A stretch of DNA of 64,000 bases, from contig NW_020844929.1 of assembly GCF_003704095.1 (NCBI RefSeq), forward strand, positions 1 to 64,000, read 5' to 3'. Shown in pieces: positions 19,742-63,647 of the stretch. The notes under the pieces were generated by a model. That model saw only the letters and a program-made list of their open reading frames with translations, was not told the origin of the DNA and did not search any database. Each line of letters begins with the position of its first letter. Within the stretch, counting starts at the first letter, position 1. The stretch is from Pocillopora damicornis (Eukaryota). The position numbers were made by a program, and so were the translations under genes.

Positions 19742-21535
19742 CTATGTTGATGTTAAATCATATGATGATGGTGGGGGTGGGGGTGGCTCGTCTTCATCAG
19801 AATCAAACTCTGCATTTTCATCTTTCTGCCACTTTCCATCCAAGCCCATGATCCACCCAGCCTGTCGGAGGCGAGAAAAGTGTTTCCTCCTAGCCAGCTC
19901 TCCAGGACTTAACGGTGTCTTTTTCTGACTTTTTGGGCCAGGTGTATCAATTGATGGCTTCATGGATTGTTTAGTTTTCTCAAAATGATTGCTTTCCGAG
20001 TCCTTCACTGAATTTGACAAGTTTTTGCTTGATTCGGTCCTCTGCACATGTTTATAACCTGGTTTGTCATTACAGATGTCCAGGTCAATGGGCTTTCTGC
20101 GCTGAAAGAAAGGCAGCTGTTTTGATGTCCTTTCTTTGCTTTCTTTATGTTTTATTGAGCTTTTTGAGCCTTGAAGGGCCAACTCCTTTTTTTGTTGTGT
20201 AATCTTCAGCAATGGTGATTCATCTTCATTCGCATCATCCATAACCTTCTCCATGTATTTCATGTGTTCTCTCTTTTGCCGTATTTCAGCATCTTCTATC
20301 AGTTTCTCAAGTCTTACTTTGGCATCTGGAGGTTAAAGGGAAGTGAAGCAAAAGTAATTGTTGTGGAGTTGAATAAATCTTTTAGAAATACAAAATAGGA
20401 TAATACAAGAAAGTAGCTCCATTTTCTGCATATAAACACACACACACAACCCACAATTCAACCATCTGCTCTGAAGATAGGCTAACACTCAAAACATCAG
20501 CTTTGAAGCTCTTTAGCAGTGGCCAATTTACATCACCAACTCAGTTGATAACACCAAACGTTCTAATTTATACTCGCCCACAGATGTAGCACTTAAGTTT
20601 CTTTAGAAATTTACAGGTTACTAATCTGCGATTGGTAGATAAAGTACAAAATGACAGCTTTAGGAAAGAGAAAAAAGACGTTTGCCTGAAAAACATGTAA
20701 AATTCATGATGATTATAAATTAACTCCCCTTATCAACAGACTTTTTGTGATTGTGGAACATACACCACAGTTATACACAAAGTAAACAAACAAATGAAGG
20801 GAAAAAACAAACAAAAATTATAAACAAAACTAAACCAAACAAATTCTGGTTAACATGAAATTCTCTATCATCTCATGCTATTTAATTTGATTTGATTTGA
20901 TTTTTACACTTACATGAGAAATGTTTCTTCCCTTGCCTGTGAATTCTCAGTACAGCAACAGTGTCAAAAACTGGGCAGTGTTTACAAACTAGACAGGCAA
21001 ACCTAGAAAGAGCAAAACGAGTCTAAAATAGATTTGCAACAGACTAATAATAATTGTATCAATGCATACAAGTGTTCTGCATGCCCTGCTCGCTAGGATC
21101 AGTAATTTCGAAAGCGTCGACGTCGTGGGTCGAGAAAGATCGAGGAAGATGTACAGCTATACGTAGATGGTAAATTTTGAGTTCAGCCGTTGGACTGAGG
21201 AAGATGTTTTCTCAAGAGCTAAGCTTATCAAGTGGAAGTTAAAAGATAATTGTTACCTGCCATTTTTCGTGAGTGTGGCTTCGTCTTCGGGAATTTCTTC
21301 CAACAAAAGTTCGGATACTCGCTGTCTCTAAGACAGAGTAAGAACATGCAATTCATAATCAATGGAAATTTTCGTATTTTCGCCTATGTTTCGGCCTGGC
21401 AAACTGTTCACTAGGCCCAAATTAAAGATTAGTGTCGAGAGGGATTTGATTACTAAAGAAAAACGTTTTCACGAGTCTACGCACCTTTTGTACTCTTAAT
21501 GCAGTGGGGTCATCGCCAACTCTTTTAAATGACAT
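19742..21535 (-). CDS. SCNM1: Sodium channel modifier 1 (minor spliceosome zinc-finger protein); 4 exons, 264 aa
   Basis: Exons 21535-21485, 21327-21257, 21002-20914 and 20325-19742 (795 nt). MSFKRVGDDPTALRVQKRQRVSELLLEEIPEDEATLTKNGRFACLVCKHCPVFDTVAVLRIHRQGKKH (C2H2 finger) and the acidic C-terminal motif GWIMGLDGKWQKDENAEFDSDEDEPP. Confidence 0.95.
20468..20615 (+). repeat. Degenerate hammerhead-family (Penelope-type) repeat in SCNM1 intron 3
   Basis: gctctgaagataggctaacactcaaaacatcagc...aactcagttgataacacc...gtttctttagaaatttac. Confidence 0.65.
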
Positions 21536-29508: not shown

Positions 29509-29515
29509 TATAAAA
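29509..29515 (+). promoter_or_regulatory. TATA box of the sFRP gene
   Basis: gcgca-TATAAAA-g with a GC-rich 5' flank, ~80 bp before the ATG. Confidence 0.6.
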
Positions 29516-29594
29516 GCAATCAAACAATTTAGGGAAGTGCATAGTTTTTTTAAGTCGTGAATTTTCATCTCTCGTCCACGAAAAAAATTTTTTC

Positions 29595-32500
29595 ATGTAT
29601 TCTGTACGGCTTTTGGGTCTACTCGCAATGGGCCTCTTCGCAGCCGACGGATTTCGGTTCAGTTTTCAGCCGAAGTGCGGCAAAATTACTAATCCATTAT
29701 GCAGCCGTGTACTCCCGTACAACTTAACGCGTTTTCCAAACATATTTGGTCATCAAAGCGAATTTATAGCCAACAGAGCCATTCAGCTATTTAGCCCTCT
29801 GGTGAAGCAAGCGAACTGCTCCAAACACGCCGAGTTTTTCCTTTGCTCCTTCTATCTGCCGATATGCTTGCCAGGAATCGAAGAAGAGAACGTAATAAGG
29901 CCCTGCCGTTCCTTGTGCGAGCGAATCAAGGCGGACTGTTCAGCCGTAATACAGTACTGGCCGAGCTTTGTGAAATGCGAAGAACTACCTCAGTTCAAAG
30001 ATAGTGTGTGTATTCAGCCGGAATCTTTCATTGCTGAGCCAAAACCAACAAGTAAGTGATTATGAGATTCGTTTTGTATTTCAAGCGCGGTTTATAGCCT
30101 TTCAGTAAGGGCCAATTTGTGGCTTTGATATCAGAGATAACAAATTACGTTGAAGAGCATTAGCGCGCAAGTTACCCGCTAGGTAGACTTAAATGATGCT
30201 CTCTCCATTTCTCCGCAAGAAAACAGGTCGAAGAGTTGTGATAAAGCACTTTAAGATCTTAAAAGCTGTCTTACAGAGGCTGCTTGCGATGGCTGCTGAT
30301 CGTAAGACAGATATTTTCAACAAGACAGCTTCCTGAAATAATGAAGAAATGCGAAGTTACTGGTGTGTACTAGCGACGTGGCCGAGAGTGAATTTTTGCC
30401 GAAGAATCGACTATCATCATTTTCAAGACCTATTTGTCGTAATTTTGAGGGAAATTAACACTAAGGTAACGATGATAAAACAATTTTCATGGCACTTAGC
30501 AGGAAAATTTGAACTAAAAGTTATTTTCGTCGGTTTTCATGATCGTGAAGACATTTTGTGTGAAGTCGGTTAACGGGTGAAGAGTGGGTGTAAACAACAC
30601 AGCGGTGAGCGATACCACTATTTCATAGAGTCAAAGTGTGCTACCATTCTTTTTCCTGAAGCTCGAGTGTTTATTTGGAATCAGTGAACAAAAGCAATAG
30701 CTCTCGTACATCTTACACTGGGATTGAAATGATTCATCGTTTCTAATTTTTGGAAAATTAAACTCTTCTTCATTTATTATTCGTAAAGAAAACAAAGTTT
30801 CTCTTGATCATTCTCTCGCGAGAACAACTTCAAAAGATCACGTCGAAAATCTGACTCAAAACTCCATTGAAAATCTCAGGGACAAATGTTTTAATTTCCA
30901 TTACTGAGATAAGCGCTATCAGATACGATAAGATGAGATCCTTCAGCAAGTATCTTTGAAATTTAAAACAGGAGATTTCAATGTGTGCGTCTGCTCATTA
31001 AGAGGCCTGAGACACCCACTTCATTACAAGATTTATCCCACGGATGTTGGCAAATTGATTGGTGGTACTTAATGAATGAATACGCTGAAATAATTTCCTG
31101 AATGTACAGCCCACCTTGCGAATTTCTTATCCGGCTCATCCGGAATGTTTGTTTCGGATTTACGTTCATATGTTGTCGGAACTCTTCTGAAAGTGTCAAT
31201 TTTTCAACATTCTCCCGATAAAATTTTTCATTTGTCAGTGATTGATAGTGTTGTGTAAGATAGATACAATAACCACAGATGATTATTAAGATATCATTGA
31301 TAGAGACGGCGGCCATTATGACCTCATTGTCGCTTACTTTTCACGCAATGATCATGTGGGGATCAAATAGGGTCAATTATAACAAAGTGAATAAAACAAA
31401 CAAAGCATGACAAAAAACACAAACTCGAACAGACCAAAAAACAGTGTTTTAGGGTTAAGGTAAAGTTAAAGCATTTTCAATTTGGCCAAACGTTTTATAT
31501 AAACGTCAATTTTGTAGACAGTGTCAAGAAGGCTTATACCTAACACCTGAAAACAAGAAGGAAAAAAATTACCCTTGAACGTATCACCCATAAAACTGAA
31601 AACTCGAGGTCCGTGGATTTTCTAAAACGGCACGTTACTTCAGACGTCGTTTAAATCATTATCCCAAAACCTGAATGCATTTATTCGATTATTAGGCTGT
31701 TTCTTTTAAGATATGATTCGTGCAATTGCCGATATGTCACATCACAGACCCTCGGAAAGACGATATCCGTGACAGGACATACACGAGTCAAAGCTTATGT
31801 GACGTTGGAAAAAGTCAAAGGAACACTGTCATCCGTGCATGATACCCTTGAAGCTCGCTTACAAATAAAAATCAAGCTTCACACACGGAGAAAACCGCAA
31901 GAACTATGAACGGATGATCGGCAGGGCGGATGTCGTTTGTTGTGGGTGGATCAAAGCAACAGTGTACATACTAACTAACAACTTTTTTTGTTTTTACATC
32001 AATTTTTAAGACATCCGTTTTTTTTTTATCCAATTTCAGAGATCGTTAATGTCGCTCCGTGCGAGAGTAGACCTCCAGCTGATTACAGGTTTTATGCCAG
32101 CGGCCAGTATGATTATGGTAAGAATGTACATATGCTTGAAACTGAAAAAAAGTGTTTTTTTTTATCAAGCAAAGCGAAACCTTCAGGTTAGGTGACTAAA
32201 ACAGCTAAATACCACGATTAGTTTTCCCTGTTAAATATAGAAAAACAAGATCTAATTCAGCTTTTTCGACTGAAAATGACAATTCACCCTTCCAGTGGAT
32301 TTCAATGATGAAGAAAAAGCCGCCATTGTAACATATGTGTACTTATCACGGTTAACTTCATCGGCAATAGCGATCCCAATGCAATTGTAGGGAATAGCCA
32401 TGAAGTAGATTTTTAAAGCTGTTGGACTCTCTTGAAAACTCTGATCTTAAAATTATCTTATATAAATTAAAGGTTCACAGGCTTCCACATCAATGATCTC

Positions 32501-33438
32501 TGTTGTAATCTTTCAGCCATGAAATTCAAGGTAATTTTGATTGAAAAACGTGAAAACCAAGAGACGATATTCCATGGGAAAGCCGCCAAAGTTTATAAAC
32601 AAGGTTATGTTCCAATCCACAAAGGGCGTGTGGAGATCTGGAGTTATACCAATTCGACGTGCCCCTCTCTTAGGGCAGGGCGGGCATTCCTGATCAGTGG
32701 ACACGAGGATGTTCTCAGAAAAAAACTACTCCTGTCGTCCACTAGCTTGATAGAAGCCTGGAGCGGAGAGACAATGCGCAAAGTGAGAAAGTGGCTCAGA
32801 ATTGAGAGCAAACTTGCCATGCAAAAAAATAGAAACAGGTAAGTTTAGCACTTGATTGTTTTGACTTAACACCAATTGTAGATAGACCAGTGGATAGACA
32901 GGTAGATAGACCAGTTCTCTGCCCGACTGCACCAGCAACAATAATAACAAACAAAAACCAACTTACGAAAAGACAATAACACAAGATAATTAAATGGTAA
33001 CAACATGAAACATGGCAAGAGATTATGAACAGTTTATAATGTCTTTAACATGCCTAAATTGAATTGTACATTATATAGTTTAGATACATTTGCCAACTTT
33101 CCCGTTTGCAGCTTCAGGCGATAATTTTGTAGCGTAAATATCTCAATTTCTAAATAAGTCTATTTCTCTTGAGCACCGACAGCCAATACCTTTAGGTTGA
33201 AATTGATTGACGCATATAAATCAAACATACAAACTGTAACTAACAAGAAACAGGCCCGCAGAAAGCTTGTCTGTTATTTAAATGAGTTACTTTTTAGCAC
33301 CAGTTTTGTGTTGCATATAATATAAAATTCAGGGGACATGACATGAAATCATTGTCATGAGCATCACATTCCTAAGACATGCGTTTCCTTTTTTTCTCTT
33401 ACAGTGTGCCAAACAAAGAGATTCGAGAAAAACTGTGA
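29595..33438 (+). CDS. Secreted frizzled-related protein (signal peptide + Frizzled CRD + netrin/NTR domain); 4 exons, 296 aa
   Basis: Exons 29595-30051, 32040-32117, 32517-32838 and 33405-33438 (891 nt, phase-consistent). The CRD has 10 Cys (PYNLTRFPN, FFLCSFYLPIC, PCRSLCE); NTR-like YDYAMKFKV...TCPSLRAGRAFLISGHED...IEAWS; no TM segments. Confidence 0.9.
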
Positions 33439-37507: not shown

Positions 37508-38158
37508 TCAATTCGTACCACTGTTACATCTTTTAAGCCATTTTTCAATTCTATGAATATTCCTCTGGTCCTTGTTGAGTTCTTCAGTCGAACACGTTCG
37601 CGATGAAGCGAGGGCATAATTCAAATTCATCTGAGTCAGATGCCACTGCCTGTCCCCTTCGCGGTCACAATATTGTATATTTTCATCTGATGCACTTCGT
37701 GGGACAATTCCAGATCCATTTTCCGAAAAATCCGCAGAACAGTTCAATAAATCCCTACTTACTGATATACCGACTGCAGTTGATAGATCACAGCAACCGT
37801 CCAATTCGGAATAAAGATCTGCGCTTGTATCAGCCAGAACCATGTGAATATAATCCATTGTTTTGTACCGGCGAGCCATATTAGTGATTCGATATCTCGA
37901 CCAGGCTTTTAAAAACTCTGGGCAATCATCGTACCAGATTTCTTTTTCGAGGTCGCATGGAAGACTCCGCCATCTTGGTATCCATACAGTATGATCACTT
38001 CTTTGGCTCGTTGTTAGAAACGAAATGCAAGAAAATCTATCAGTTGCCAATGAAGTCCTTGATTGTAGCTTCTTTTCGCGAAATTTCGTCGGATAGCTCG
38101 ACATATCTGGAGTGATAATTACCGGAGGAGACAAAGGCAACTCGTTTTCTGTCTCCAT
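37508..38158 (-). CDS. Orphan single-exon protein, 216 aa, ending in an IxxWL helix
   Basis: 651-nt ORF in AT-rich DNA with a good start context (acaATGg); Ser/Arg/Asp-rich; C-terminus NIHRIEKWLKRC. No recognisable domain. Confidence 0.7.
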   Translation of the reverse strand: METENELPLSPPVIITPDMSSYPTKFREKKLQSRTSLATDRFSCISFLTTSQRSDHTVWIPRWRSLPCDLEKEIWYDDCPEFLKAWSRYRITNMARRYKTMDYIHMVLADTSADLYSELDGCCDLSTAVGISVSRDLLNCSADFSENGSGIVPRSASDENIQYCDREGDRQWHLTQMNLNYALASSRTCSTEELNKDQRNIHRIEKWLKRCNSGTN

Positions 38159-40921
38159 TGTCGTTCATTTCTCGAAAATATTTCGGCACTTCAATTGTAA
38201 ATATTAACTTAACAGGTTTAGTGAAGAGAGCATCTGATTAAGGCTGAGCGAATGGCATTGACACGGGTGAATATTACAATATTAAGATGGCTTGCGCTTC
38301 ACATCGCTGGCGGTGTGTAATATATTCAGAAACAACAGTATTTTTGTAGTGTTACGTATGTGCGCATACTGGCCAAACTCGTAAATTGTATTCCAGCTAT
38401 AAACTGTCATGCTCTGTCCTCCGATTGGCTAGATTTAAAAAAATGGAATCAAAGCCGAAACGAATCCATTGAGCAGAACAACTTAAATGTGTTTTCCGAT
38501 CTCTTTTGCAGGGTGATTATCAACGGAAATACAGATTTCTGTCCGCGATTCCCTATTTGTCCACGCATTTGCTATATGGTTAAATGTCCGATGCTTTTAC
38601 CGTAATTTTGCCCATTTTGTAAACAATACGTCAAAAGATTGAACCTTTGACGCATTTTGTATTTAAATCAATAGGTGTACGGGAAGTCATAGATAGACTT
38701 TCGGTTGAATTTCCATACGTTTCTGACAGCGATTATCAATTATTAACAACATTTCAATTTCAATATGTCTACAATCAAAATGAAACGGAAGCGATTACTA
38801 AAATTAACATTTTCCTTCAAAAAAAAGAAGGAAAAAAAATGTTGATAAGGATTACTCAGCCTCTTCTATGATTGTGTTGGGCCAACAGCTGAAAACAAAA
38901 AATTTGCTATGCGATATATTTGATGTTAATTGGCATTCACGTGCATTCACTTTACCAATATTAGCCGCTTTCATCTGTCTTCCAATTTCTTTTTCATTCA
39001 TTTTTAAATTTCAGAAACGCAAACGATAATCAAAACTCAGGATAACCTAACATTTTTATGAGATAAAAAAAAAAAAAAGAAATTATCCTAAGAGAGATGT
39101 TATAGGTTTTTTATATCGTTATGAGTTAGTTGGAGTCGCTCAGACGAGAGACAATTTAATGCGGATTTCACTTGAAGGGAAAGATACTGGTCTCGCTTAA
39201 AACTGTATTGGCCTGTGATATCATGCTACTGTTAGTTGCTATATCGCTGACTCATGTCGTAATGCCACGCTGATCGGCGGCGTGCGTGTTCCGAACAGTG
39301 CAACGGAAAATCGGCCCGTTTTAAAGAGAACGGATAAAAACAGCCATAGCAGAATATTCCTACCAAAAAATGAAACTCACTTTTATTCGCCCATTTCTTT
39401 CGCCGGGGCTCATGAAATAAATGAATATACAAAATCTCAATGTAATCGAGTCATCCGTCTTCTGTCTGGTATATTTCTTCACAAAACTTCTTTGGCAATT
39501 TTGTTTTGTTTCCTTTTTTTTTAATCTAAAAGCAACCCTATGAAGTGAAGCAATCATGTTCCTTCCTGCGGTTAAACAAAACAAAATACATTTAAGAGCT
39601 AAATAGAAAACAATCAGTTTATTTATTTTTTTACTGAAAAACTGTTTACAGTGTTATTAATATCAACTTGAAAATATTTCAGTAGTGGCAAAAGCTGGAA
39701 GATAAGAAGTGCGTGCCCGGTTAAATGCCGGCTCGCATTACTGCTCTTCCACCGCAGAACTAATTTCAAAAAGTGATTAAAACTGTTTGGTTCTTTCGTA
39801 TGATGATTCAATGGATTTTCAAGGGGCATTACTCTTCTGACTGAAGCGATGGACGATGTAGTCATGAAGTCTTTTTACTTCTATCAGCCTGTTCACCTCT
39901 CCTTTCCAACTTTCCAAGTCTCCTTTCAGCTTTCCACGTCTCCTATGAAAAGAAGAAAAAAAAAAAAACGACATGACAATAAATTCAAATTCTAATTTTT
40001 AATAGAGTATTACCTTGCGTTGAAACAATCTAAATATTTTACTGGAATAGCTGTTGTTATCAATAATGTTACCGTTTCTGCTTCTTTTGGAACTCCTTCC
40101 TACTGACTGAAGTGACAGATCGTGTTTTTACCTCGTCGATCAATGGCAGGGTCTGCCAGTGTACGTAAAAGTGATAGAGCCAGAATTTGTCTTGACTTTA
40201 TTGACCTATTATCGTTTACGTTGGTACCTGTCTCAAGACGCTTTAACAGACTAAGCAGTTTTAGAACATATCAATGTCGCGTCATTTACACTTACAAAAC
40301 AAAAAAGTGTCTATCAGGAACCATGATTCTGTTCAAAATTTTACACTCAGGGTTAAATCACCCATCAAATGTTCTTGAAGTCAGTTAAAAACTGTCAACG
40401 ACATCAAAGGAAGTGGGAACGCTGAACTTAAGGCAATTTTTGTTTTAAGTTGTCTACTCTGTTTGAATTTGGCCCAAATGTTATCATTTTACGTTTGACT
40501 TTTTTATTGTAATGGCGCCATTCTACATAATTCACGCTAATTTTGAAGTATTATTGATTGTTAACTTGCCATAGCGCTGTTGTAATTAAACTCGCAGAAA
40601 CAACGCTTTTGAAACACCTTGTCGCAGTACTTTATCATTATTACTTTTCACTTACATGTTCGGCTAGCTCAAATGATGGTTTATTTTATTTCCTAAAAAA
40701 ATGAAAACTTTATAATGAAGAAAGTCCAAGAGAGTTTTTGCATCCACAGATATCTTTCGCCATCCAAGAAATCGACTCATTCTAACCAGTGGAATAAAAC
40801 TTCACAAACCCCTTTCCCACTAGCTACTAAAGGCAAATGTCCCTTTTCTGAAAAAAAATTGTAGCAGGTGAGCTGCAATTTTAGCCAGTACAGGAAAGAA
40901 GCCTGAATAAGAAATATTTAA

Positions 40922-40993: not shown

Positions 40994-42114
40994 GCAGGTT
41001 GGGAGCGAGGCAAATTTTAGCGAGGATCCTTGTGTTTTCTATTGTCCTTCATAACTGAAAGCGAAGAAAAGAGTAACGCGAAGGAAGTCTCTTTGCGTTC
41101 AAACTGTCCTTTCACCTGTTAGGAACTCATACAATGATGTCATATGCCATTGCTTTTTTTTTTAAATTTTAATCTTAATTTTTGTGAGAATAACTAAGCC
41201 ATGGTAATCATTTATAGATGAGTAGACTTACCGAAAAAAAAAAACCTTGATTCCTAAAATAACTAGTTGAATTTTACTAAACTGCGAATTATCTAGCCAA
41301 TAAAAAATGAAAACGAAAAAAGAAAAGAAAATTAACAAACATTTCGAGCCATGACCTCGTCGAAGGGTGTAGATTCAACACTACTTACTTAACTGAAAAT
41401 AATCACCGACGCTTAGGATCCAAGAGGAACTCTACACCGGGAGGATATTGTCACCAGAGAACCGGCGCTGATTGTAATATCATCAAATTAAGAAAACTGC
41501 ACGAAATATTTTTTAAAATATTCTTGCGGCTATCTCTTCCATAATGGAACTTCTCCTCATACAGTAGATATTTAAAAAGTCTTTTATTCGGCATGTTGAA
41601 TTCTATCCTCGGTATTTTTAGCCCTCGAGTTTTCGTGTGCTCTATATTGACACAGTTGATTTGTAAATATACGATGTGTATATGTTTTGTTTACAGCAAT
41701 GTTTAACAAGGATTGACACGATCATTTTTCTAATCTTTTTTCGACTTTTTGTCCTTTGGAAAATCTCCCTTTTACTGTTCCGCACCACATACGTACAGCT
41801 ATTATTGTTAATCATTACGATCATTTTGAAAGTTTAGAGTTGAAAAAAGACATTTTGTCATTAATTATTTAGCAAAACGCATTAGCCTGCGGAACATGCT
41901 GCCTAAACAACCATCAAAAAATTGAAGATTGTTTTTCATTAGAAAGACATACCTGTCACATTACTTAATTAGAGCAGACCATCAGGCGGTTATAACAATT
42001 AATAGCCATAGTTATAAATTATGTCGTGTTTTATGTTATATTTCATTCATTGAGGCACGCTCTCAGGGTTCATCCGATCTTGTCAGTCCGTTCGTCCGTT
42101 CATTTTTCGCAGTA

Positions 42115-43091
42115 ATGTACAGACTATCACTCGTTTTGGTTTGCGTTTACATCGCTGTTTCAGTAATGCTGTTGACTTGCCCTCGAGATACTGAAGCTTC
42201 TGCTCTAACACCCTACGGAAAGAGATCACAGGTAAAAGTAATAAATTTACCTTAGTAAAAATGAAAAGAAATTAAGGAGTCAAGTTTCTTAGCCATACCT
42301 ATAGTAGGAATTAAGATCCGCATGTTTGACTGTGAAAATCTTCAGTTGAAAGTTATCACGGGCTGAGGTCTTTAAAAACTGAACTTGGTATTGTTTTGAT
42401 AACTTTTTGGTGTTTAATTTCTGTATTATGATGGGGAAAAAATCTTTTGCAACGAGAATACATTGGAAACTTAGGACATTATCATTATAAAAAGATTCGT
42501 AAAACGTGCCAAAGTGCAGGATGGAGAACATCTCGGTGTCTGTCCAGATCAAAAAGAAAAAATAAATGAAGGAGATAAATGCTTAGCGATTTAAACAACC
42601 TTCGAAATTATAAATTACAAGAAATTGTTAAAAGAAACCTTATTAGGAACTTGCCTTTAAAATGTGTTTAAATGTTGGAAGTCTTTTTGAATGATTAGGA
42701 GGTTTATTTCTCTGAAACGGATTTTTAGTCACCTGCTTTGACTTATGTGCAATGCTGTTGTTGGAGTAAAATGCATAAAAAAAAAAAGAATGAAAAAAAT
42801 GGCGAAATAGTTCAAGTATTAATTAGCATTTAGATTTTCTCGTCATCTCAGCCGATCTAAAAGTTTCAGTAATTTAGGCTGATTTAAAACAATTTAGGGG
42901 CGGCATTTGACTTTTAATTATTTCTTTGACTTTATGACTCCACTAGTGCAATTAGTTGTGTTTAATAGCATGTTTATGTCTGTGTTCAGGTGTTTCGTTA
43001 CAAGAGAAGCATCTGTCAGGCAGCCAGAGCGCTGAGGTGCGACAGTGAAGAAAATCCGATGAGACGAGACCTAGGAGCAGATGACATTTGA
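42115..43091 (+). CDS. Neuropeptide precursor, 72 aa, predicted SALTPYamide; 2 coding exons
   Basis: Exons 42115-42231 and 42990-43091 (phase 0, GT-AG): MYRLSLVLVCVYIAVSVMLLTCPRDTEA-SALTPY-GKR-SQVFRY-KR-SICQAARALRCDSEENPMRRDLGADDI*. Signal peptide, amidation/cleavage site GKR, second KR, Cys pair, and aataaa at 43186. Confidence 0.8.
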
Positions 43092-45362
43092 TGGTGTCAC
43101 TGATAAATTGCGAGGCCCTTTACACTAATTATTATGTCATGAATCATGAAGTCTTTAAGTCAAATATTTAAATTAGTTTTACGCCAATAAAACAAGAACT
43201 CATTGGGTACCAGACGTGTGGTTCATTAAAAGTTCGTTGTCAATTTTTTTTCTAAAATATTTGTTCTTTCATCACGACGACAATAAGCCTCTTTGCATTT
43301 GATTTGTTTTTGTGTCCCTTTTTCTACCCATAACGAAAGCCAAGCTCTCTTAAATCCTGCTCTCTTCTGAAAAAACGGGCCAAAGCCATTACCTTAAAGT
43401 TTAGCTTAAAACTTTGATCATTAAAGCAGTCTTTATCAGACTGTTTATGTAAAGCTTGAGCTGCCACGATTAAAACCATCTTGAACCTTAAAAAAAAGGT
43501 TTGCTCTAAAAATAGGTTTCCAAACATGAGCAAAGTGAAAAGTGAATACATACGCAATACTCATTTTCTTGTCTGATCCTCATTTCAAAGGAGCTCTTCA
43601 CAATCAATCTTAACAATCAATCAGTAAATTGGAAGGTATTATTTTCATGCAAGAGATTATTTTCTTGATTCATTTAAACTCCAAAATTGGTAATTTTTGA
43701 ACTGTGCGAAATTACCTTTTGATTAAGAATAAAAGTAATGATAGAGATAAAATTATGCCAAAAAAAAAAAAAGAAAAATAGAAAATTGTCGACAAGTGTT
43801 CAAAAAAGTTCGTTAGGTTGATGAGCGTCATAATACAGAAGCATGAGACTGTTTACATATTCGTATAGCATCTGCATTTGTTATCATTAGGTCGCAAAGT
43901 AATCTTTACTGAGGCGAGCTCAGAAGCGATAATTGTGGCGCTTTTTTCGGGTTGTGGCGCTTTCTTCAGGCATCTCCGTTTGCAAAAACCGTTGTGACGC
44001 AAACTAATCATTCGGGGTACACCGATGACCTAGTTACACAATGATTATCTTGTTTACATCGTTTATTTGCTATTTGCCGTCATGATTGAACCACACAGAA
44101 ATTAAAATTTGTTCCAAATTTACACATAGAGAAGGCAATTGTTTACTTTACATGCGCTGGGACGACATCATACTCCTAAATTGGAAGTCCATGTTTATTG
44201 CATATTGGGGTATGGTGTAATAATTATATCAAGAAAGAAAAAACAATAACAACAAAAGAAACCAGTTATCGAATTTATGAGCAACATTAAGCCTGGTTTT
44301 CCTCACCTAAATAAGCATAATAGCATTCAACTCCTCTGCTCCCATCCAGACTTCTTGCAACGGCCGGACGCTCTCTCGTCTTCGCAGAACGCCTGCGCTG
44401 CAGGCTAATTTGGTAGTAGCACCCAGCTGGTATTTGGGAGGAACCTGTTCGAATTCTATCGAATTTTGAATTTATTCGGGCTCTCCTTAACAGAAGTTCA
44501 AGATGTCACTAGAGTTTCAACATTTTTACTTAAAAAGCCACCAAAGAAATTGGCAGATTATCAAAGAATTTGCGATCAGATCTTATGGCCTGCTCCTTTA
44601 TCCTAAGCAACCAATCCGATATGGGCGGGTCAAATGGATAGCTCCTCCTGATATTGAAAAGTTTTTGGCTTTCCGAAATTCCTGTTATTAAGCGCCTAAT
44701 AAAGAATAACACTTTGGAAACCGATTTAAACTGCTACTATTCTGAAATTTACTGTAACACCATGCATAAATAATGACAGTCTGTTTGTTGTCATGGAGAT
44801 GTGCCTTTACATCCAGTTATTTCATCCGCTGAAACGTTCTACAAGATTGCAATGGAAGTAGGTGCGGTGTTGAAACGCGAAACTGGCCGTGCAAGTAAAT
44901 AAAATGCTAATTATACCCAGCTGTCGGTTGATTTGTTTGCATTATGTCAATTTTTTACCTCAAAACGTAATGAATTGTACGCTTCAACGTATAATTTTGT
45001 CAAACCTTAAACAGTCAAATCTCAAGCAGTAGTGATCTGTACCGTCATCAACTTACAGCTAATATTAAAATGAAACAGTTTCTCTCGATCTCACTATCAC
45101 CGATTACAGCAATGTTCCGGTTGGGTTGACCTATTAACAGAAAGGCTTGAGATGAACAGTGATGCGTTTTTCATGACTGTTGTCGTAGAGGTTGACACTT
45201 CTTGTGCGACTGTCTGAAACGATCTTGAACTCGGTGCAAAGCGCTGACTCGCGTCACAGGTCAACTTGAAACAACCTTTTATCTTAATTACCCCGAAATT
45301 AGTTGGAATCCTTAAGCCACCATAAGACTCCAGTTGTTTTATTTAAGCTCAGTGGTAAAACA

Positions 45363-46320
45363 ATGGGCAAGCTGTGTACGTCGTCGAAGAAAGGAACCCA
45401 ACGTAAACACCAATTTTCAGGTAACTTCAAACTTGTAGATAAAACGACCTCGTTAGTCGTCATAACCCCGCTGAATCTAAATTTTTCTACTTAAAGTGAA
45501 GAGAACACCAGCTGGATCAAATGGATTTTCTGACAAATGGATTTGCGAGAACCAAGAAATTTCCGAAATACATTATGCTTTAAAGGGAAAAGAAACCAAC
45601 ATGAAAGAAAATCGTTGCTCTGAAGGTCATTTTCCTCAAGTGGTAGAAGGTCTGGAATCGCAGACCAGTCAAGCGGTAAGCACAAAACAAATGGAACATT
45701 CTGATCAAAGACAGGTGCAGAATCAAAGTACGATTAAGGAATTTCAGCTTAAACAAAAGCAACTAATTCCAAGGATAAAGCTGCCATTTCCACCATCTAC
45801 TCCTAAGAACAAGGACCACGATGCTATGCCTACATTTCGACAACGAAAGTTCAGAGTTGATTGCCCTGGCTCCCCGCTCAGTGAGGCGCGTGAAATAAGA
45901 GTTAAAAACCGTTTCCCTGTGACCATCTCCGTTGATACTTTCCCTGTTACCGGTAATCCGGCTCCGTATAGTTGGTCGACAGACTCTAATGACGAAGAAT
46001 GCAACAAAAATGACGTAGAAGGGGTAAAGGAAGTAAGAAACAATGTTGAGGGTCTCTTGGGTCTCAATTCTCCAATGTCACGCCTTTGGGATTCTGTCAC
46101 GACATCTGTCACGTCGATTAGTAACCCTCATATTTATAAGAGCCGTGGTCCCCATCCCATCGACTCTTTTGCGCAAAGACCTCTGGAATGGAACGCAAAA
46201 CTTTGTCGTCAAAAACTAGAGCTAGCGGACAGCTTTGATTCTCAGCGCGGTAAAGATTCCGCCCTGGCGAGACAGATGATCAAAAACTGGCTTACTGACG
46301 TTAATATTAGATCTAAATAA
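45363..46320 (+). CDS. Orphan disordered protein, 293 aa, with N-myristoylation-type start and C-terminal IxxWL helix; 2 exons
   Basis: Exon 45363-45420 (MGKLCTSSKKGTQRKHQFS + G), a 76-nt GT-AG intron (45421-45496), and exon 45497-46320 in frame with the 274-codon ORF; ends ARQMIKNWLTDVNIRSK*. Confidence 0.75.
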
Positions 46321-50448: not shown

Positions 50449-51312
50449 CTAAGTGATTTTAGCTTTTTCGCAGTCTTTCAGCCAATGGCAAATCATTGAG
50501 AATTTTTCGAATGTCTCCTCATCATCGTTCTGATCGATCACTCCGTCTTCGTCGCACAATTCTTCATCTAAATATTCATCGATCTTTACATTTTGAATGT
50601 GGTCGACGCATTCGTCTATTTTGTTTTCCTGGCTTGTGAACGCGGACTTTGTGTGCTTGTGGAAGGCGGAATCGTTTATACAGTCTGTTCCCGTTGTAAG
50701 AGCAAAGCCAGTTTTGATTAAAGGCAAAGAATTCGTTTTGCGAAGATGTTCTTTCTCAACGCCAATTGGTGTTGACATCCTTCTCCTACCTCCAGGTCCA
50801 AGAAGCAATGTGTTGTTATCAGGTGCAACTGGGCGGGAAAAGGCTCCATCGTAATTATTATTCATTACACCATTAGTTCCCTTCAGATCTTTAATATTCT
50901 TCTTGATAGCGTCTTCTCCTTGAGACGCATTTCGCAATGGAGGAAGACATGAGGCTGACAATACCTTAGGCAGCGTTTCCCTCGATTTATGTTCTCCTAG
51001 CACTTCAAGAAAATGTTCCGAAGGTCGTCTTACAAGGAACCCTTGATCCCCATTTGTATTGTTCGTCGGTGGTGTAAATGGAGGAGTCATGGATCTCACT
51101 TCAGACAAACTAGAGTCATGTTTGGAACTACAGGCACTCCTCGAAGATACAGAAAACATCCTTTCTCTTTTGGCAATATCATTAGCGGTTTCCTTATCGA
51201 GGTATGGTTGTTCATAGGCATGGTTGTCGCAGTTTAAAATCGTTGGAGGAGATATTTTGCCTCTTAATGGTAGGAGGCTTTTGTCTGACTTCTTCATCGA
51301 TATTTCCTTCAT
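50449..51312 (-). CDS. Orphan disordered Ser/Pro-rich protein (~287 aa from first ATG), acidic tail and C-terminal IxxWL helix
   Basis: Long ORF open from 51375, first ATG at 51312; a possible acceptor at 51366-51367 means an upstream exon may exist. Motifs RRPS, RRMS, RKTNS; ends DEETFEKFSMICHWLKDCEKAKIT*. Confidence 0.75.
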   Translation of the reverse strand: MKEISMKKSDKSLLPLRGKISPPTILNCDNHAYEQPYLDKETANDIAKRERMFSVSSRSACSSKHDSSLSEVRSMTPPFTPPTNNTNGDQGFLVRRPSEHFLEVLGEHKSRETLPKVLSASCLPPLRNASQGEDAIKKNIKDLKGTNGVMNNNYDGAFSRPVAPDNNTLLLGPGGRRRMSTPIGVEKEHLRKTNSLPLIKTGFALTTGTDCINDSAFHKHTKSAFTSQENKIDECVDHIQNVKIDEYLDEELCDEDGVIDQNDDEETFEKFSMICHWLKDCEKAKIT

Positions 51313-52966
51313 TGTGAGCAGAGCTGGAAATGTTTCCGTAATCCTTTCCTGGCTAAGCGCATCACCTATAGTCAAACGAAGTGAAATACAGTTTGTTATG
51401 TAATTCTTTAAACCTAAACATAGTCAACGGCCGGCAATGAGAACATTCAGGAATGTAACTCATATCGATTACTGCTCTGTAAAATAGCTTCCACTCAGTA
51501 AATAAATGACATTGTCATTTAAGTAGTATAATTCTAAGTTCCGGTTCACAGAAAGTAGGTTCACCCTAAGTTTTAATCCTAAGATAACTCCAAGATGACT
51601 CGATTCTGTGCCCTTAAGTTTATGTTTTTCTCTATTATAACAATGCTAAACTGAAAATTTTCGTGTTATGAATTTGAGTCATTATATTAAAGAAAAAATG
51701 TTTCCGTGCTCTCGTGCTCATTGCTGACAGCTCATCAAGTTAAGTGGTTCAAATAATTTCTGCATAGCAAACAAATTCCTCTATTGGCCTTTTGTTCTTT
51801 GTGGTCTGCCTGATTCTACCCGACCGGCCGGCGAGTTTACTTATACGTTCATTTACACAATTCAATTAAGGAAAGAACACAAAATACCTCTTAATAAACA
51901 GCCTTGTAATTAATGAACATGTTATGAGTCCTTTTTATGAAGTTTTGTTAGCAGAGAGAAGTGAATCCTTTTATTCGTTATAACAATGATGTGCTTGATT
52001 TACCTGCCTAGAACGTGTGTCTTATACTGATCAATAACTTCACACATGACGACCTTTGGTGGTAAAACTAAGAGGAATTGAATGATATTTTAAGATAGAA
52101 AATGAACTACTGGAAAACGGCCTACATCCCTGCCTCTGGCACTGCTTAAGATAATAGCCGGGTGAAGTAAAATTTATTCTAGATGAATCGAACAATTAGT
52201 TAAGTGCCTATTTTCTAGAACGTTTCTCTTACCTTAGTAAATACAGGGAGAGAATTGAACAATTGATGATAAATTAAACGTTAACAGCAAGGGTAACGCA
52301 GAGATCTGGGTTTCTTGTCCCATGAACCGTTTTAGTTGGCTTGATGGCGTGATTTCATTTCGCTGATAAGTTTTGTAAGTAAATATCATTAACACTCAGG
52401 AAGCAACAGAGAGATGCTGAAAGTTTGTCAATCAAAGTTGAACTGCTATGGTAATTAATCTTGAGCTATCAAGTGTCTCGCCTTATGGATCGACTCAGTG
52501 GCTCACGTGCACCTGGAGTGTTTCACGCGTATGCCAATGAACTACGCATGGCTTAACTCTAAAGATAGCTTTAGGTGTTTTGTATTATTTAGCATTATCT
52601 ATTTTCTTGCTACGTCAGGCCTCAAATTTGCTTTCGCTTCAATTTTAATTTTTGTAGACAGTCTTCAAGTGAGCACAATTACACAACTGGGAGCGTTTTT
52701 TATTTCAAACCTGACCTTGTTTCCTATTGTCTTGTTATTACAAGAGTTCCAAAGTCCATTCATTCCCTGGTAATTGCAGGCAGGGTTACAGAACAAAACA
52801 TATCATCCCAATTATTCAGTCCCAAAAGGAGCCGGGATTTTTAAAATAAAGTTTTACACCTATCGTCGTCACTTTCTGCTTTACGCGCATGATAACTGAA
52901 ATGTATAAATATTTCTTTTCCTTACGTATGCTTTCCTCTCGCTAGCCAATGGTTGGTAAGAGCACA

Positions 52967-61218: not shown

Positions 61219-61977
61219 CTAACTCTGACTGTTTAAAAAGCGCTCCAAAATTACAGCTTTAGTCGTGAATAAATCATAGTCCAACTCCTCTTTTTCGATA
61301 TGTCTTCTGAGGTCAGCTGAATGTTTTTCTTCGGTTCCTTTGCGTGGAGTCTCTCCGTTGTTGAGTTGAGGCAAACTGTTAGAGCATGTATCGTTTTGTA
61401 TTTTTGTGACGAGAGAAAATTTTCCATCGTTAAAAATGACTGGATGTGAAATTGTTCTAGTAAGTTCGTAGTGTTGTGGGCGATGTACTCTCTCTACCCA
61501 TTCAGATGAAGGCGCCGGCAGTAGTTGGACATTCTCTTTCAAGTCTCTTTTAATAAGATTTGGTAGCCAAGAGTTTTCGTGGGAGCTTCTTTTCTCTAAG
61601 GCCGATTTGAACAACTTCCCTCGTCTTGGATGTGAAGGCAATCCCACCAGTGCTATTATTTCGGTTTTTCCCTGTTCAGTGTCTGAAAAGGCATGAGGTG
61701 TTGTAATTCTTGACGGCACGTTACAATCCGAAGATCCCTCACGCAATGAAGGTAGATGCGATGAAGATGACGATCGTCTCGGTAGCATAATATTAGGATT
61801 TGGTAGTTCTTCGAGTTGGGAAGACTGATGAATTGGAGTGGCCTTCCTTACAGTCCTCATTGCTCCTTTAAAACTACAACGTCTAAGCTTCCACGGAACT
61901 TGTGCCGGTATCAAATTCGCGGATGTGTTTGCTGTGAAATCAGTTGCGATGTGATGGAACTTCACATGGATGTCAGT
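61219..61977 (-). CDS. Orphan disordered Ser/Pro/Arg-rich protein (~250 aa), C-terminal LxxFL helix; start uncertain
   Basis: Long ORF with RRCS, RRSSSSS, KRSS and RTIS motifs, ending EELDYDLFTTKAVILERFLNSQS*. The listed start is GTG; a possible in-frame acceptor precedes 61977, and a possible micro-exon MYVC lies at 62541-62530 (speculative). Confidence 0.7.
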   Translation of the reverse strand, partial: TDIHVKFHHIATDFTANTSANLIPAQVPWKLRRCSFKGAMRTVRKATPIHQSSQLEELPNPNIMLPRRSSSSSHLPSLREGSSDCNVPSRITTPHAFSDTEQGKTEIIALVGLPSHPRRGKLFKSALEKRSSHENSWLPNLIKRDLKENVQLLPAPSSEWVERVHRPQHYELTRTISHPVIFNDGKFSLVTKIQNDTCSNSLPQLNNGETPRKGTEEKHSADLRRHIEKEELDYDLFTTKAVILERFLNSQS

Positions 61978-63647
61978 CTTAATGCAGAGGTCACGAAATG
62001 GTGTTTGATCAAAGGAAATAATTACGATTAAAATAGAAAGACTTTGTCACTCAGTCAAACATTTATTGTTAAATGCGCGAATCACAGAATAGTTGATTTG
62101 TGCGCATTGTTCGATTATCATGGCGCAATTGAAAAGAAATCATGCCATGAAATCTGATGCTTTAACGACTGAGTGATTCTTTTCTTTTATTCCACGGTTT
62201 AATGCTCTAAGCTGCGCCAGATTAAAGCAAAAAAACGTGCATGTTAGGGGATGACCTTAAGGAACACGTTTCTTCAACTGCCCACTGTTGTAGAAGACAT
62301 CGGCGTCTTTCAATTTTACTGAAAAGCCGATTACGCTGTGATAGGAATTCATGTTTTTGTTAGATAAGGCGTTTAAATCTTTATGGGAAAGACCGAGCGT
62401 GTGTATTTGCACGCGCGACAGGGTGATGTAAAGTCTGTACGTGAAAACTCCTTTTACACTTGGATGGCCGACTGATCTGAATGTTTCAGGAAGTAACATG
62501 TCGATGGGTTGCCATGTGAACATGCTTACACACACGTACATACTTTATGACTAAACGCGAAAACCATTGGTTTAAATATCAAACCCGGCTAACGTTTGGT
62601 GACTATGGTTTGTGGGCCGATCGACCTCTAGGGGAGGAGGACTTAGGCACAGGTTTGAAGCGAATGGTGTTCATTTGTGGAAAGAACTTAAGGGGCCTTA
62701 AATTTAGAAATTTACAGTATTACGTATTGCATGGCCTTGCATTTAATCAAAAGAAGGCCAAGTTAATTTACTCTCAATTCATGAGGGAAGCTATATGGAA
62801 ACATCTGGAATCTTCGATTTTAAATTTTATGGCTGTATTTTTAATACGTTTATCTAAAAGTGTCATGCATCCTACAGGAACTTTTCTTTTCGTATTCGGC
62901 AAGAGAATAGTAAACTATAATCTCGTCTTCGATGATCTCCTTGATAAATGGACAAAGTGAACTACTGTTTCATTCTGGCATTAGATAAAACAAAATGATT
63001 GATAGCTTTTTTTTGTTTCTGAATTCTCCTGAACATAAAACAAAAAAAATTGTGTCGGTGTCAATCAGCCATATTTAGCTCTCGAAAATATACCATGTTT
63101 CCAACATGATTTCAAATGCGGTTTCAAAACTCGTTCAAGCGGCGGGCATCTTCACTCGAAGAAACCAGGAAATACAAGCAATGCGGATATGTTAGAAGAC
63201 CAGTTCTGTGCTTTTCCTTTTCAGTTTTCGAGGAACTAGCCCGCCGATATTTAATAGGGGTTGCTTTCTTCCGCTATGTAGGTCACGTTCAACGCAGATT
63301 ATTTTTATTTTGTCAACGTAACGTATATCTACTACTTCATATTTAGGTAATTATAATCACAGAGAGACTATACGCGTATTAATTATCACCCTTTAGATAT
63401 AAATCCTAGCGAATCGTTTAATTGATTTAGTATCAAAACCTCACAGGACAGGTAGTCTGAGTAATTCACAGCTTTGTGTACGCCTTCAACAATCCTCACT
63501 CCAAACCTGTCTCGATCTCACGCTTGACACCTAAAAGTGCACAAAACCGCAAGACACAAGACAGGCATGGGGGTGCTTTCTTACTACTTTTATCATTAAA
63601 ATTTTTATGCGCTAAATAGAACGCAGAGAGGCTTTTAATACCAATAC

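Follow-up and report, generated by a model that had tools for sequence, protein, structure and literature searches.

The most variable part of a small gene for a predicted secreted precursor in the coral Pocillopora damicornis is the part that encodes its predicted product. In an 18-base tract specifying a short cargo peptide, variation among samples reaches about 16 times the density found in the intron of the same gene (44% of bases against 2.8%), contrary to what is usual in neuropeptide-like precursors, which hold the mature peptide constant. The gene lies in a stretch of 64,000 nucleotides, here called the window, and its structure, its transcript, the variability of its cargo and a family of genes of the same design were observed directly. 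The TPYamide that the initial annotation of this DNA had predicted is likely one form of a hypervariable cargo, not a fixed new neuropeptide.

Reconstruction from the window DNA gave two exons separated by a GT..AG intron and a precursor of 72 amino acids containing SALTPY-GKR, SQVFRY-KR and CQAARALRC. The gene comprises the following features:

42013..42019, + strand: TATA box TATAAAT, found in the sequence, 32 nt upstream of the cDNA 5' end
42045..42231, + strand: exon 1 (5' end at about 42045, coding sequence 42115-42231), from the cDNA adapter in run X5; donor GTAAAA at 42232
42115..42198, + strand: predicted signal peptide, residues 1-28, from hydropathy and the cleavage pattern in paralogs; 2 of 84 bases variable
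42199..42216, + strand: hypervariable cargo peptide, residues 29-34, SALTPY in the window, from the comparison of samples and variable-site statistics
42217..42225, + strand: G-K-R, predicted amidation and convertase site; no variable bases listed across 42217-42231
42232..42989, + strand: phase-0 GT-AG intron of 758 nt, from the reconstruction, with the joint in run X10
42990-43091, + strand: coding sequence of exon 2, from reconstruction of the spliced reading frame
42990..43007, + strand: spacer VFRY and second dibasic site KR, which is KK or RR in other copies (including a loose end in run X6)
43008..43040, + strand: conserved family module SICQAARALRC (C-x7-C), whose C, A, L and C are kept by all 14 paralogs in the alignment
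43041..43091, + strand: acidic tail, containing RR at 43062-43067, together with the stop codon, from the reading frame
43186..43209, + strand: AATAAA at 43186 and poly(A) sites at 43207/43209, from the sequence and run X5

The signal peptide has a clear hydrophobic core (maximal hydropathy over nine residues, 3.1). Its cleavage is predicted after TEA (Ala28), with an alternative after ASA at residue 30, and most paralogs share the cleavage pattern small-[ED]-[AG] ahead of their cargo. The predicted splice junction appears in a contig of run X10, where precisely 758 nt are skipped at GT..AG, and contigs spliced likewise are present in runs X13 and X5. Run X5 also carries the cDNA adapter as a loose end at 42045, with poly(A) at 43207/43209; these ends fit the signals of the gene, the adapter agreeing with the TATA box at 42013 and the poly(A) with AATAAA at 43186. 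The evidence for transcription consists of assembled contigs, and the RNA origin of several runs was guessed; that these contigs derive from transcripts is supported by the intron-free joint and the untemplated A tail, neither of which would be expected from DNA. The gene is confirmed as real, spliced and polyadenylated in RNA contigs, and the two-exon model of 72 residues, with its splice sites and polyadenylation signal, has thus been borne out by the X10 junction, the spliced contigs of X5 and X13 and the poly(A) of X5. One contig of run X1 spans 42542-43182, taking in exon 2 and the 3' half of the intron but lacking exon 1; it could represent a retained intron, an internal start or DNA.

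The predicted product agrees with the small secreted prohormone-like precursor described initially, in which a single GKR-flanked peptide follows the signal and a Cys pair stands near the C-terminus. The expectation that predictors would easily miss such a gene needs correction, since it did not escape them altogether. The NCBI model pdam_00015122, a hypothetical protein, contains the precursor as its C-terminal 72 residues, its start being wrongly extended at the N-terminus, and unnamed gene models exist also in P. meandrina and Stylophora pistillata, with a more distant one in Oculina patagonica. In a tree only the window, P. meandrina and Stylophora sequences were resolved (100/99), and the Oculina protein P0005 is a possible ortholog.

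Near-identical copies of the gene, the window included, carry 11 distinct forms of the segment that follows the signal peptide. Before GKR, the window has SALTPY and P. meandrina AAPLPP. Reading of the runs by hand gave SALIPY (X22), VALIPS (X24), AAPLPYP (X13), AAPIPYP (X6) and AALTPY (X5), both AAPYPP and an AALIPY-like form in X10, and a cargo with a PLPP ending in X11; the forms taken from X5, X6 and X10 contigs rest on the differences listed, a few others being unlisted. In one unnamed cluster of ten members, five have IAPRP-GKR, one has VALTP-GKR and four stop short of the exon. Runs X10 and X11 each hold more than one form, and runs may pool colonies or mix cryptic species, so that the forms may be alleles or species differences. 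Eight runs were compared, of which seven cover the tract (X1 does not reach it).

The initial annotation had staked its neuropeptide on conservation of xxTPYGKR, and this did not emerge: PY directly before GKR is kept in 4 of the 11 forms, the Stylophora ortholog has PYK-GKR (cargo AAPWPYK), and exact SALTPY is absent from all seven runs that cover the tract. The residue before GKR is Y, P or S depending on the form, and the length of the cargo ranges from 5 to 7. What stays constant, in Stylophora as in each of the 11 forms, is Ala2, Pro5 and GKR, with the skeleton x-A-x-x-P; since these are kept throughout, the cargo does not look like a free spacer. The cargo of Oculina P0005, AASPPRYGLWG, contains GLW. 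Together with the RP ending of IAPRP, this indicates that cargos can come to look like known neuropeptide endings.

The variation is strongly focal. Of the 18 cargo bases 8 are listed as variable, against 21 of the 758 intron bases and 3 of 201 in the remaining coding sequence; by part, the signal has 2 of 84, GKRSQ has 0 of 15, exon 2 has 1 of 102 and the 3' UTR has 9 of 116. The comparison of cargo with intron, in which intron cover varies among runs, gives p 5e-8, or 6e-7 if 10 further unlisted rows are all assigned to the intron. A scan of random placements was used because the tract had been picked after inspection; any 18-nt interval with 8 sites arose in 0 of 20000 placements of 42 sites and in 3 of 20000 placements of 52. 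In a single X24 contig (42008-42691), 7 of 10 differences fall within the 18 cargo bases, which leaves 3 for the remaining 666, and two reading frames of 218 codons over the region differ at 3 residues, all within the cargo. Two of the eight listed cargo sites are silent, and the window differs from X24 by five replacement and two silent changes (hand count). Because silent sites in the tract vary too, the pattern is not one of plain dN/dS > 1.

Several smaller differences were noted elsewhere in the gene. The 3' UTR has a cluster of its own close to indels, with 6 variable bases within 18, which counts against simple selection. At 43138-43158, also in the 3' UTR, substitutions and small insertions are clustered among runs, which probably reflects alignment around indels. 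The change 43030 C>A in X13 and X6 replaces an Ala in the Cys module by Glu, the residue found in the C3883 and C33 paralogs. The P. meandrina model P0002 has a longer tail in a different frame after the Cys module, with one base fewer near 43074-43076 (43069-43125 in the window); we take this frame as an allele or an assembly error, and as a sign that the end of the tail is unconstrained.

The variability of silent sites would also agree with a more conventional explanation, namely that the gene encodes an ordinary single-copy neuropeptide, a ligand of a neuronal GPCR whose receptor reads x-A-x-x-P plus the amide, and that a local mutation hot spot combined with tolerant selection produced the different forms. 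Sequence scans of the cargo tract found no hairpin or repeat that could explain a hot spot, and the animal's own genome holds no near-identical second copy, exon 1 being present once. As in neuropeptide precursors, there is a signal peptide, a Gly with a dibasic site (in all 11 forms) and a spliced, polyadenylated transcript. Among 12 close paralogs, seven have Gly plus a dibasic site, in six of the seven after Pro; one form, IAPRP, would end in RP-amide, and the Oculina relative carries GLW. The language-model Atlas, which provides leads only, places the protein near prohormones of neuropeptides (GnRH, AKH, corazonin and spexin, 0.85-0.89). However, neuropeptide families are defined by the C-terminal residue before the amide, and here this residue is Y, P or S, in peptides of 5 to 7 residues. 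Moreover, the mature peptide is less conserved than its flanks (8 of 18 against 3 of 201 coding bases), being the least conserved part of the gene, the opposite of the usual situation. We consider an ordinary neuropeptide somewhat unlikely.

The likeness in layout is nevertheless real. In passages of PMC7523074, the hexacoral single-copy precursors (Antho-RWamide, -RNamide, -RIamide and -KAamide) bear one peptide after the signal and measure about 65-85 residues, an organization with which the Pocillopora gene agrees, since it too has a short peptide straight after the signal followed by Gly and basic residues; short Pro-rich amidated peptides are typical according to parts of PMC11087051. Yet those families hold the C-terminal motif fixed across species, whereas in Pocillopora the peptide is the most variable part, and the precursors in the passages of PMC7523074 are without its Cys module. 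The endings LRN, YRI, FKA and LRW (of the RN, RI, KA and LRW amides) occur in none of the 11 forms or the 12 close paralogs. Antho-RPamide resembles the present case in its Pro-rich amidated peptides with variable N-termini, one of our forms being predicted as IAPRP-amide; it differs in that 10 of the 11 forms, that of the window among them, are without an Arg-Pro end, and in that here there is one peptide per precursor. The annotated P. damicornis RPamide precursor is, in the passages of PMC7523074, a separate multi-copy sequence.

A comparison with SIFamide- and luqin-type precursors, made in the initial annotation, holds for the layout and fails for the peptide. Precursors of the SIFamide, luqin/RYamide and AKH/GnRH types share with the coral gene a signal-adjacent peptide and G-K-R, and several have conserved cysteines close to the C-terminus. 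SIFamide precursors have the Cys spacing C-x6-C, and here it is C-x7-C; no peptide motif is common to these families and ours. The likeness is one of layout alone. Peptides of the SIFamide/luqin type end in RF, IF, RY or RW amide, and no such ending is present in the window, the other forms or the paralog cargos.

The conserved C-terminal module marks a larger set of genes. Members were sought by protein and pattern searches of the coral's own genome, and gene models were then built from genomic DNA. The 12 close members consist of a signal exon, a phase-0 intron and a second exon bearing the motif R-x-[IVL]-C-x-x-A-[RK]-x-L-x-C, with the acceptor 18 nt ahead of the motif in ten of them and 24 and 27 nt in one each; TATA boxes are also present upstream of most paralogs. 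The tail is the sole element common to these 12 genes, their cargos being unrelated. In aligned paralogs C, A, L and C are invariant (14 of 14), and Arg occupies two further positions in 13 of 14. An amidation signal is absent from 4 of the 12. Six complete genes are clustered on C3130 (174500-199100), along with a seventh for which no exon 2 turned up in a region broken by assembly gaps; the cargos there are FGNSFPP, FCGGCPP, FGAGLPP and FNGVFPP, each followed by GRR, IGIFPP followed by GKGKR, and one without an amidation signal. Several of these members have a single Arg only ahead of the Cys module. Four of the cargos begin with Phe right after the signal, like phenyllactyl-peptide precursors of sea anemones. 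Further close members lie on C3735, C4316 (FTGTVP-GKR) and C3101, and about 13 more distant motif exons on C266, C3827, C3883 (five), C33 (three), C3735 (two) and C4316 (one), for ten of which an upstream signal exon was found.

The common design of signal, variable cargo, basic site and Cys module thus extends to as many as about 25 genes in the genome, where certain copies could be duplicates because they lie close to assembly gaps, and constitutes a coral cassette family that is apparently undescribed. Splicing has outside support for the gene studied here and for one paralog (67-residue product P0004), the remaining genes being models. Three pattern scans returned 46, 53 and 46 matches, against 32, 23 and 22 in reversed controls. 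Matches on C458, C3508, C2, C236, C799, C231 and others, for which neither an acceptor nor a signal exon could be assigned, or one of the two was missing, were dropped, and the single locus from a metagenome scan was discarded as a helicase frame of prokaryotic type that matched a word by chance. No sea-anemone relative appeared in sequence searches, which are weak for short split genes. Hypervariability is not a property of the whole family, since the FTGTVP-GKR paralog showed no change in either of two cluster members. P0013 and P0027, unnamed relatives whose cargo bears Cys, differ at three cargo residues and three upstream residues and at none in the signal.

Two tandem clusters, on C3883 (702000-747800) and C33 (8600-21200), have near-identical flanks and divergent cargos. 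The C3883 cargos bear a Cys pair of their own, and one C33 copy of exon 2 is broken. Between pairs of the three modelled C3883 genes, 2 of 60 signal bases and 2-7 of 78 bases of exon 2 differ, compared with 15-25 of 51 in the cargos. Variable columns number 26 of 51 in the cargo against 20 of 247 in the flanks (p 1e-11), and replacement changes amount to 1-4 of about 105 sites in the flanks and 13-21.5 of about 40 in the cargo; in the cargos pN is above pS, the excess not being significant (p 0.07, 0.32 and 0.47). The C3883 genes are counted as members by their gene anatomy and by motif scores of 20-22 bits, obtained at loci that the motif itself had picked.

A separate problem is whether the conserved tail might itself be the ligand, closed by a disulfide and freed between KR and RR as SICQAARALRCDSEENPM, the N-terminal peptide being a largely dispensable pro-piece. 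Conservation of the tail (the four residues invariant in all 14 paralogs, the two Arg positions kept in 13) speaks for this, as do the single variable base listed among the 102 coding bases of exon 2, the basic residues ahead of the tail in most members, and the four close paralogs whose cargo has no amidation signal. On the other hand, it would be hard to explain why at least a dozen genes should encode near-identical ligands joined to unrelated N-terminal pieces, and a dispensable piece would be expected to vary at the intron rate of 2.8%, not at 44%, and to be free of a fixed Ala2, Pro5 and GKR. The single Arg ahead of the module in several C3130 members also fits poorly with such release. 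That the tail is the ligand therefore appears unlikely to us.

The conserved signal and follower around a hypervariable core, with many cores being 5-7 hydrophobic residues ending in Pro, recall in addition the cyclic-peptide cassettes of plants and fungi, in which the tail would act as a follower for a prolyl-oligopeptidase-like enzyme that cyclises a Pro-ending hydrophobic core; MSDIN peptides, orbitides and the Pro-rich cyclic peptides of sponges are the relevant comparison. We regard this as highly improbable, as the Gly and dibasic residues right after the core form a canonical amidation signal and 5 of the 11 forms end in Tyr or Ser instead of Pro.

Fixed flanks around a fast-changing product are typical of recognition, venom and defence peptides, and less so of neurotransmitters. 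It is because the gene follows this pattern that we favour a diversifying cargo: the peptide, predicted to be secreted and amidated, is quite possibly a signal under diversifying selection towards a variable partner, not a fixed neurotransmitter, and other colonies, gametes, microbes or prey would be candidates for that partner. In conotoxins and in frog-skin peptides of the tryptophyllin type, near-identical signals and flanks accompany a fast-diverging mature peptide, the genes form tandem arrays, and some products are neuropeptide-like. The coral genes resemble these in their conserved signal and flanks, hypervariable mature peptide and tandem arrays; unlike in those systems, the conserved module comes after the cargo, and there is no sequence likeness. 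A more specific proposal would be that the cassette family comprises at least 20 genes of reef corals and that the present member is a polymorphic identity signal, with different short amidated peptides secreted by different colonies or species of Pocillopora, matched by a polymorphic receptor and serving self/non-self, gamete or larval recognition. We regard this proposal as unlikely.

If the diversifying cargo is the product, established processing rules suggest how it might be made. The precursor would enter the secretory pathway and be cut by signal peptidase after Ala28; a convertase would then cut at KR, and a carboxypeptidase and an amidating enzyme would convert G-K-R to the amide, giving SALTPY-NH2. 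LTPY-NH2 would be formed instead if an x-Ala dipeptide were removed or the signal were cut after Ala30, and the invariant Ala2 would permit either. Cleavage at the second KR would release the Cys module, which may close a loop or link chains and could be a common handle for folding or granule sorting. Disulfide loops act as sorting handles in some prohormones. Such a role for the tail, with the cargo as the product, is suggested by the fact that unrelated cargos share one tail; a fixed handle might let the family swap its cargo freely.

Pocillopora is a reef-building genus in which species limits and self-recognition are poorly understood. Cargos of 5-7 residues are cheap to synthesise, so that roles in recognition, defence and neuronal signalling are directly separable. 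The conserved tail offers a handle on a family of small secreted genes missed by peptide-repeat screens and by Pfam, and may correspond, in cnidarians, to the tails with cysteines of bilaterian single-peptide precursors.

Pfam searches gave no match beyond one sub-threshold hit among 9 and among 18 family members. Against PDB sequences, one search returned a single weak hit, on the signal peptide, and the other none. AlphaFold2 models, in which a helix ends before the second Cys, had low confidence, at a mean pLDDT of 63 and 66; fold searches with them gave no matches, and the prediction of a two-copy complex scored 0.02 and speaks neither for nor against pairing. The top Atlas match, again a lead, is an unnamed, mostly arthropod cluster of 74 residues (0.91-0.92), sharing 172 of 256 features with the Stylophora protein.

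With regard to novelty, the absence of a match among the described hexacoral precursors that could be searched stands; TPYamide as a conserved neuropeptide does not. A 2022 peptidomics paper on Nematostella reportedly names GGY-, GTE- and IVL-amides. In full-text literature we found no paper on TPYamide, IPYamide, LPPamide, PYKamide, TVPamide or PYPamide, nor on a cnidarian PPamide, and none with any of six gene or protein identifiers, and broader literature searches brought up none that treats this family, judged by titles and the openings of abstracts; supplements beyond those examined may contain the gene or family. The words AARAL, TPYG and VFRY had no hits in 10 of the 11 supplementary files of PMC7523074. 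Six family motifs had none in the Nematostella mass-spectrometry table of PMC11087051, the gene was not found in the examined part of the Nematostella peptide library of that paper, and files 1-12 of its 31 supplements (receptor data) gave no precursor hit.

As for the surroundings of the gene, long reading frames at 37511-38164, 45481-46317, 50452-51423 and 61222-62046 had no Pfam match. A galactosyltransferase is encoded at 2828-3853 (+ strand) and an SCNM1 exon at 19745-20332 (- strand), and a Frizzled domain and an NTR module, sFRP-like in combination, lie at 29514-30056 and 32471-32839 (+ strand).
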